Origin: Escherichia coli | Lineage (GTDB): Bacteria > Pseudomonadota > Gammaproteobacteria > Enterobacterales > Enterobacteriaceae | Assembly (NCBI RefSeq): GCF_003334815.1 | Contig: NZ_QOWO01000004.1 | Length of the DNA stretch: 64,000 bases | Direction: 5' to 3' (one strand) | Part shown: in pieces, positions 33,828 through 34,607 of the stretch | Position numbering within the stretch: position 1 is the first letter of the stretch | How the letters are laid out: each line of letters opens with the position of its first letter | Position numbers and translations under genes: made by a program | Notes under the pieces: generated by a model | What the model saw: only the letters and a program-made list of their open reading frames with translations | Told to the model about the DNA's origin: nothing | Database searches by the model: none

Positions 33828-34607
33828 CTACACCGTAATTAATTTTACCCGTGTCTTCTGCAATGCCAGTTTATCCACCTCTGATACAGCATCATCGGTA
33901 ATAATAATGTCAATTTTTTCGATTGGCAGTACCTGATTAAAACCGCGACGGTTAAATTTCGATGAATCGAGAACGGCAATCACTTTATTAGCGGCGGTGA
34001 CCATCGCACCGCTAATCGAATAACCTTCATTAAAGGTCGTAATACCATTAACCGCATCAATACCATCAGCACCGACAAACATTAAATCGGCATTAATATC
34101 CTGCAATGAACGCTCGGCAATGGAACCATGCATCGAGCGCGTTTTATGGCGGACCGTGCCACCACAGACGACCAGAGTAATGTCTTTATTTTCGGAAAGG
34201 GCAAACGCTGCCGGGAGACTGTTGGTAATCACCGTGATATTTTTAGCGGTCATTAATCCTTCGGCGATAAGCATTGTGGTACTTCCGCTGTCGAGAATAA
34301 CGGTCATCCCTTCATGGATCATTTTGACTGCCGCCTGCGCTATTCTGTTTTTTGGCGCGCTGGCGAGCTGAAATCGCTCTTTAAACCCGACTTCCTGGGT
34401 CTCGGTTTCACTATTACCGGACATTATTTTCGCCGCACCGCCATGAAAGCGCGTAACCACGCCTTTTTGTTCGAGAAAGCGCAAATCGGCACGGATTGTC
34501 GCTTCCGAGGCAGCAAATACTCCCGCCAGATCCTGAACAAGCACGGTTCCCTGTTCATTCACTAATTGGATGATCTTATTCCTTCGCTCGAATGAATTCA
34601 TCGTCAT
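33828..34607 (-). CDS. gatR: DeoR-family galactitol operon repressor GatR, intact
   Basis: Uninterrupted 259-aa ORF (MTMNSFERRNKIIQLVNEQG...; alternative start 6 nt downstream); HTH plus DeoR C-terminal sugar-binding domain. Confidence 0.9.
   Translation of the reverse strand: MTMNSFERRNKIIQLVNEQGTVLVQDLAGVFAASEATIRADLRFLEQKGVVTRFHGGAAKIMSGNSETETQEVGFKERFQLASAPKNRIAQAAVKMIHEGMTVILDSGSTTMLIAEGLMTAKNITVITNSLPAAFALSENKDITLVVCGGTVRHKTRSMHGSIAERSLQDINADLMFVGADGIDAVNGITTFNEGYSISGAMVTAANKVIAVLDSSKFNRRGFNQVLPIEKIDIIITDDAVSEVDKLALQKTRVKLITV

Follow-up and report, generated by a model that had tools for sequence, protein, structure and literature searches.

An intact galactitol-operon repressor gene, gatR, in a natural Escherichia coli isolate

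In Escherichia coli K-12, inactivation of gatR by an insertion makes the galactitol (gat) operon constitutive (PMC5850726; bioRxiv 10.64898/2026.01.05.697630; PMC10878103; PMC9189660). A gatR open reading frame is also found next to the gat genes in the 64,000-base stretch of E. coli DNA analyzed here (hereafter the window), which raises the question of whether this copy is a working repressor gene and whether galactitol catabolism in this strain responds to galactitol. The features of the locus on which the following analysis draws are listed below.

33828-34607, minus strand: gatR coding sequence, 259 amino acids from the first ATG (34607) in the longest-ORF reading; DeoR/GlpR-family repressor
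34303-34305: site matching the K-12 IS3E insertion, a 3-bp target duplication where two blastn blocks overlap; uninterrupted in the window
34608-34706, minus strand: gatD-gatR intergenic region, identical in the window, K-12, HS and ECONIH5
34707-35747, minus strand: gatD, full length
35795-37150, minus strand: gatC, full length
37154-37438, minus strand: gatB, full length
37469-37921, minus strand: gatA, full length
37931-39193, minus strand: gatZ, full length
39222-40076, minus strand: gatY, full length
40077-40200, minus strand: gatY promoter/operator region, from a promoter scan, an inverted repeat, a shared motif and a nine-allele comparison
40201-40224, minus strand: fbaB intrinsic terminator, from a terminator scan; a 10-pair stem followed by a T-run

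We observed no interruption in the gatR reading frame, whose translation in the ORF list of the window begins MTMNSFERRN. A second in-frame ATG at 34601 yields a 257-amino acid protein, WP_001295426.1, and this shorter start is the one used by RefSeq (strains 52F4, ECONIH5 and HS) and by the K-12 annotation; translation may begin at either codon, as the 259- and 257-amino acid forms are both compatible with the sequence. Pfam searches placed a DeoR-type helix-turn-helix (HTH_DeoR, PF08220) at the N-terminus (residues 8-60, E 2.9e-16) and a DeoRC sensor domain (PF00455), the part responsible for effector binding and oligomerization, toward the C-terminus (residues 85-238, E 4.1e-51). These are the two features by which the DeoR/GlpR repressor family is defined, and the presence of both indicates that gatR is a genuine gene rather than a chance open reading frame. 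Two features particular to GatR were found as well: the protein is identical at 257 of 257 residues to the E. coli GatR of HS and to that of K-12 with its insertion removed, and the gene lies where gatR is expected, at the 3' end of gatYZABCD on the same strand and between gatD and yegS, collinear with K-12 and HS. The sequence-only reading of this DNA had described gatR as a single unbroken 259-amino acid DeoR-family reading frame without an insertion sequence, and the ORF list, the Pfam matches and the alignment to K-12 all uphold that description. We conclude that the gatR of the window is a normal, wild-type, uninterrupted galactitol-operon repressor gene.

The genes that this repressor would control are also in order. 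A gene-by-gene comparison of gatYZABCD (34707-40076, minus strand) with MG1655 revealed zero internal stops and between 0 and 2 amino acid changes per gene, and the RefSeq annotation of strain 52F4 agrees that the operon is intact. Directly downstream of gatD, and on its strand, gatR converges with yegS (32847-33746), and fbaB lies beyond gatY. The predicted fbaB terminator, whose T-run has two extra T residues in the window, insulates the gatY promoter (PgatY) against upstream transcription. Strain 52F4 (NZ_CM147848.1; from a calf in Switzerland) differs from the window by 6 single bases over all 64,000, none of them within the gat locus, and the window is that of an ordinary natural E. coli isolate.

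The sequence-only reading had stated that K-12 gatR is broken by an insertion sequence and that its gat operon is constitutive, and had proposed an alignment to K-12 gatR as a check; the MG1655 annotation and the papers cited above bear out this statement. The MG1655 annotation treats gatR (b4498) as a pseudogene of two fragments joined around IS3E (MG1655 2170171-2171428; 1258 bp). The insertion is named IS1 at one point in PMC5850726; it is IS3E in the MG1655 annotation and in other papers. By blastn, window positions 31938-34305 and 34303-42874 match the K-12 segments that flank IS3E, and as these blocks overlap by only the 3-bp IS3 target duplication, the element is simply absent from the gatR of the window. 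With IS3E removed, the 257-amino acid K-12 GatR is the same protein as that of the window, the two genes differing by 10 synonymous and 0 non-synonymous substitutions.

An unbroken reading frame need not encode an active protein, and evidence on this point comes from strain HS. The GatR of the window has the same amino acid sequence as HS GatR (the same accession, WP_001295426.1, and the same direct translation), the two alleles again differing by 10 synonymous and 0 non-synonymous substitutions. When HS DNA amplified with primers yegS_F/gatD_R was put in place of the MG1655 gatR pseudogene, it "regulates the operon expression" (Sousa et al. 2017, PMC5850726), a result obtained in an MG1655 background with the K-12 allele of the gatY promoter, from which the promoter of the window differs at 4-5 sites. 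As HS GatR regulates gat, and as both the HS protein and the HS gatD-gatR intergenic region are identical to those of the window, repression has been shown for the exact protein encoded here. The ratio of 0 non-synonymous to 10 synonymous differences, against K-12 and against HS alike, is consistent with a functional gene under purifying selection. In addition, when gatR was silenced in two natural isolates, LF82 and CFT073, a strong fitness signal resulted, which the authors take to mean that the gat operon is held under repression (bioRxiv 10.64898/2026.01.05.697630). The sequence-only reading had suggested that galactitol catabolism is probably inducible and repressible in this strain; the HS-identical GatR, the intact gatYZABCD and a gatY promoter allele that is common in the species (see below) support this suggestion, and we infer from these sequence comparisons that the gat operon is very likely inducible here.

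To describe where GatR might act, we examined the DNA upstream of gatY and of gatR, in which the following elements were recognized.

40148-40154: CRP-like half-site TGTGATC before gatY
40141-40136, minus strand: -35-like hexamer TCGACA of gatY, from the promoter scan
40117-40112, minus strand: -10-like hexamer CATTAT of gatY, from the promoter scan
40102-40131, minus strand: candidate GatR operator AAAACAAATC-ATTTCA-N8-TGAAAT, spanning the spacer and the -10
34680-34700, minus strand: G+C-rich hairpin in the gatD-gatR intergenic region, without a T-run
34658-34630, minus strand: weak sigma-70-like pair TTCACC-17-TACACT before gatR, read by hand (8/12, under the scan threshold); putative promoter
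34655-34669, minus strand: candidate operator half-site AAAACAGATCATTCA, overlapping the -35-like hexamer of gatR and carrying the motif common to PgatY; putative role

The scan found a lone sigma-70-like site ahead of gatY (TCGACA-18-CATTAT, 40141-40112), and it reported zero promoters in the gatD-gatR intergenic region. A 6-bp inverted repeat, ATTTCA-N8-TGAAAT at 40102-40121, brackets the -10-like hexamer of gatY. Directly upstream of this repeat is AAAACAAATCATT. A near copy, AAAACAGATCATT, is found 68 nt ahead of the gatR start and overlaps the weak TTCACC-17-TACACT pair. Within the 64-kb window, matches to the degenerate 13-mer AAAACARATNATT are confined to two places, one ahead of gatY and one ahead of gatR, both in the sense orientation of the gat genes (0.03 occurrences expected); as this pattern was built post hoc from the same two sites, its count shows no more than the absence of further copies. 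An unbiased shuffle test of the best 14-mer shared by the two upstream regions gave 8 of 300, a modest significance. Built on a post hoc motif of this kind, the GatR operator proposed at about 40102-40131, overlapping the -10, is a candidate site. Full-text literature searches, whose reach did not extend to Nobelmann & Lengeler 1996 and Nolle et al. 2017, returned no footprint of E. coli GatR. The gatY core promoter also lies between the two arms of a perfect 8-nt inverted repeat, TGTCGTTT/AAACGACA (40087-40094 and 40156-40163), which are 61 nt apart, the upstream arm being invariant in nine aligned promoter alleles and the downstream arm variable; this repeat could be a chance occurrence or a second pair of operator sites.

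From these elements, a conventional mechanism can be proposed. The N-terminal helix-turn-helix of GatR would bind the operator at the gatY promoter and block RNA polymerase, and GatR probably binds its own promoter too. By covering the spacer and -10 at PgatY, and the -35 region at the gatR promoter, the protein would occlude RNA polymerase at both. A galactitol-derived effector bound in the DeoRC domain would then release GatR from DNA; by analogy with the DeoR family, this effector would be a sugar phosphate, with galactitol 1-phosphate the likeliest candidate.

The sequence-only reading had also stated that an operator mutation could leave gat constitutive despite an intact gatR, and we did find differences in the gatY promoter. 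Compared with K-12 and HS, the window has, within 110 nt of the gatY ATG, T for C at about -109, C for T at -89, C for T at -60 and C for A at -45; a further position, -98, differs from K-12 alone. Of these, the C at -60 is part of the -35-like hexamer, and the C at -45 lies within the candidate operator. At least 40 natural isolates carry this allele with 100% identity over 351 nt, and 1267 genomes match it at 99% identity or better. In an alignment of nine promoter alleles from across the species range, C is the majority base at -60, position -45 varies among A, C and G, and -89 also varies; the T at about -109 is absent from the other 8 alleles compared. The blocks ATTGTCGTTTTTGTGATC, TTATCTCGA, AAAACAAAT, ATTTCATTAT and TTTTGAAATCGAAA are invariant in the nine alleles and intact in the window, and the three variable sites lie outside them. 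As the allele is shared by many natural isolates, its 4-5 differences represent a common natural haplotype and not a private lesion. A private operator mutation in the window was thus rejected as a candidate, the allele being common in natural isolates and three of the compared sites being polymorphic in the species.

A common haplotype could still be a leaky one. GatR might be intact and gat nonetheless constitutive or partly so, if the operator is weaker, or the core promoter stronger, in this allele, and the presence of 4-5 differences from K-12 and HS within 110 nt upstream of gatY, the closer match of TCGACA to the -35 consensus (TCGATA in K-12 and HS) and the placement of the -45 substitution inside the candidate operator would all be compatible with this. 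We nevertheless consider it improbable, given that the allele is found unchanged in those 40 or more natural isolates and nearly so in about 1200 genomes, that the substitutions at -60 and -45 are, respectively, the majority state and one of three states in the species, and that the C at -45 brings the site closer to the copy upstream of gatR. The opposite departure, in which GatR is functional but the operon is naturally all but locked off and so poorly induced that little galactitol is used, draws on the finding that constitutive gatR::IS mutants arose in all mice colonized by a gatR-restored strain (PMC5850726). In the same study, gatR-restored MG1655 still consumed galactitol and its operon was regulated (PMC5850726), and this proposal concerns the strength of induction in one niche, under the same mechanism; we rate it as slightly less probable again than a leaky promoter.

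It could also be argued that gatR is intact in sequence but unexpressed or non-functional, a silent pseudogene, as its promoter-like match is weak (8/12, unreported by the scan) and its Shine-Dalgarno sequence is weak. We assign this proposal a negligible probability. A silent gene would not be expected to show 0 non-synonymous against 10 synonymous differences relative to two other lineages, HS and K-12 have exactly the same DNA upstream of gatR, and the HS amplicon yegS_F/gatD_R, which by its primer names covers this upstream DNA, sufficed for regulation (PMC5850726). Read-through from PgatY could supply gatR transcripts too, as the gatD-gatR hairpin is not followed by a T-run. Having weighed these alternatives, we hold it to be highly probable that the window carries the wild-type, functional gatR of a natural isolate, under which gatYZABCD expression would be low without galactitol and induced by galactitol, unlike the constitutive expression of K-12.

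We used complete E. coli genomes to ask how common an intact gatR is. A 1051-nt query spanning yegS-gatR-gatD had a match in 5110 of 5426 genomes and was contiguous in 4757, the latter being an upper bound for intact gatR, since the count overlooks insertion sequences shorter than roughly 1 kb as well as frameshifts and nonsense mutations. About 316 genomes lacked the gat locus segment entirely. A 120-nt query over the K-12 gatR/IS3E junction was fully covered in 345 genomes, nearly all of the 353 that had a match without a contiguous copy, and all 40 of the 40 listed matches among these 345 were K-12 laboratory derivatives, such as MG1655, C600, DH5alpha and J53. With 4757 of 5426 genomes contiguous, an intact gatR is what E. 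coli normally carries, and K-12 is the outlier. An intact gatR thus tells more about K-12 than about the strain of the window, a point absent from the sequence-only reading, and as such it is already known and nothing new in kind. This isolate keeps the ancestral, regulated galactitol pathway, the constitutive state being a peculiarity of the K-12 laboratory lineage, which cautions against assuming K-12 as the reference state and gives context to gut-colonization studies in which selection repeatedly acts on gat regulation.

The gatY promoter region stands out for its variability across E. coli: over the 201 nt at 40040-40240, 2048 of 5104 genomes (~40%) are just 90-95% identical, while FbaB, encoded beside it, has a single protein accession in all strains compared. 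Natural promoter and operator alleles might give different lineages different basal levels of galactitol catabolism, or different thresholds for its induction, a speculation we think rather unlikely to be correct. If true, such alleles would be the cis-regulatory counterpart of the recurrent gatR and gat loss of function seen in gut evolution experiments.

Several other features of the window were recorded. Between yegP and trhP (yegQ) is a type II ParD antitoxin/ParE-RelE toxin pair (29552-30331; ORFs 29726-30022 and 30024-30320, plus strand), which is present at this place in ECONIH5 and 52F4 and absent there from K-12 MG1655 and HS. The cyaR small RNA is present at 31867-31955 (Rfam RF00112, 101 bits), and the K-12 cryptic prophage PR-X remnant (ogrK, yegZ') at its 3' end is absent, the alignment jumping from K-12 locus position 2201 to 2813. 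The diguanylate cyclase gene dgcE (yegE; 7652-10969, plus strand) has an in-frame stop at codon 159 and is annotated as a pseudogene with an internal stop in 52F4 and HS alike. The fimbrial adhesin-like gene yehA (50254-51289, minus strand) has a length that is no multiple of three and is annotated as frameshifted in the near-identical 52F4. Rfam searches at the gathering score also identified a Sib antitoxin RNA beside ibsA (17600-17748, plus strand), a TPP riboswitch upstream of thiMD (48210-48306, minus strand) and a JUMPstart element upstream of wza (1630-1668, minus strand), all of which are expected in this chromosomal region.

Among known repressors, DeoR, which controls the deoxyribose operon, is a distant paralog of GatR with a different effector. 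In a sequence search of solved structures, which yielded no GatR structure, the C-terminal domain of DeoR (PDB 7l6l) was the sole match (GatR residues 83-254, E 1.9e-11), which supports a sensor domain of the sugar-phosphate-binding type in GatR. Closer relatives are AgaR and SrlR (GutR), the repressors of the N-acetylgalactosamine and glucitol PTS operons, which resemble GatR over their full length, share its two-domain layout and likewise repress operons for PTS sugars or sugar alcohols; they differ from it in operon and effector. No GatR-specific model was found in NCBIfam, where the best matches were AgaR (232.9 bits, cut-off 260) and SrlR (226.3 bits, cut-off 350). As these scores fall under the curated cut-offs, equivalog identity with AgaR (NF040755) or SrlR (NF007753) was rejected and GatR was taken to be their paralog. 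The GatR of another natural isolate, EC3132, is reportedly the subject of work by Nobelmann and Lengeler from 1996.

The K-12 pseudogene b4498 resembles the gatR of the window in that its joined fragments encode the same 257 amino acids, and differs in carrying IS3E, with gat constitutive as a result, whereas the gatR of the window is without an insertion. The gatC gene is a second point at which K-12 MG1655, rather than the strain of the window, deviates: in MG1655 it is a pseudogene with a 2-nt frameshift, and in the window (35795-37150, minus strand) it is intact and encodes 451 amino acids. The natural-isolate GatR of HS (WP_001295426.1) is the closest counterpart, being the same protein with the same pair of domains, encoded at the same site downstream of gatYZABCD and convergent with yegS; its locus is set apart from that of the window by the 10 synonymous gatR differences and the 4-5 gatY promoter differences, and by none at the protein level.
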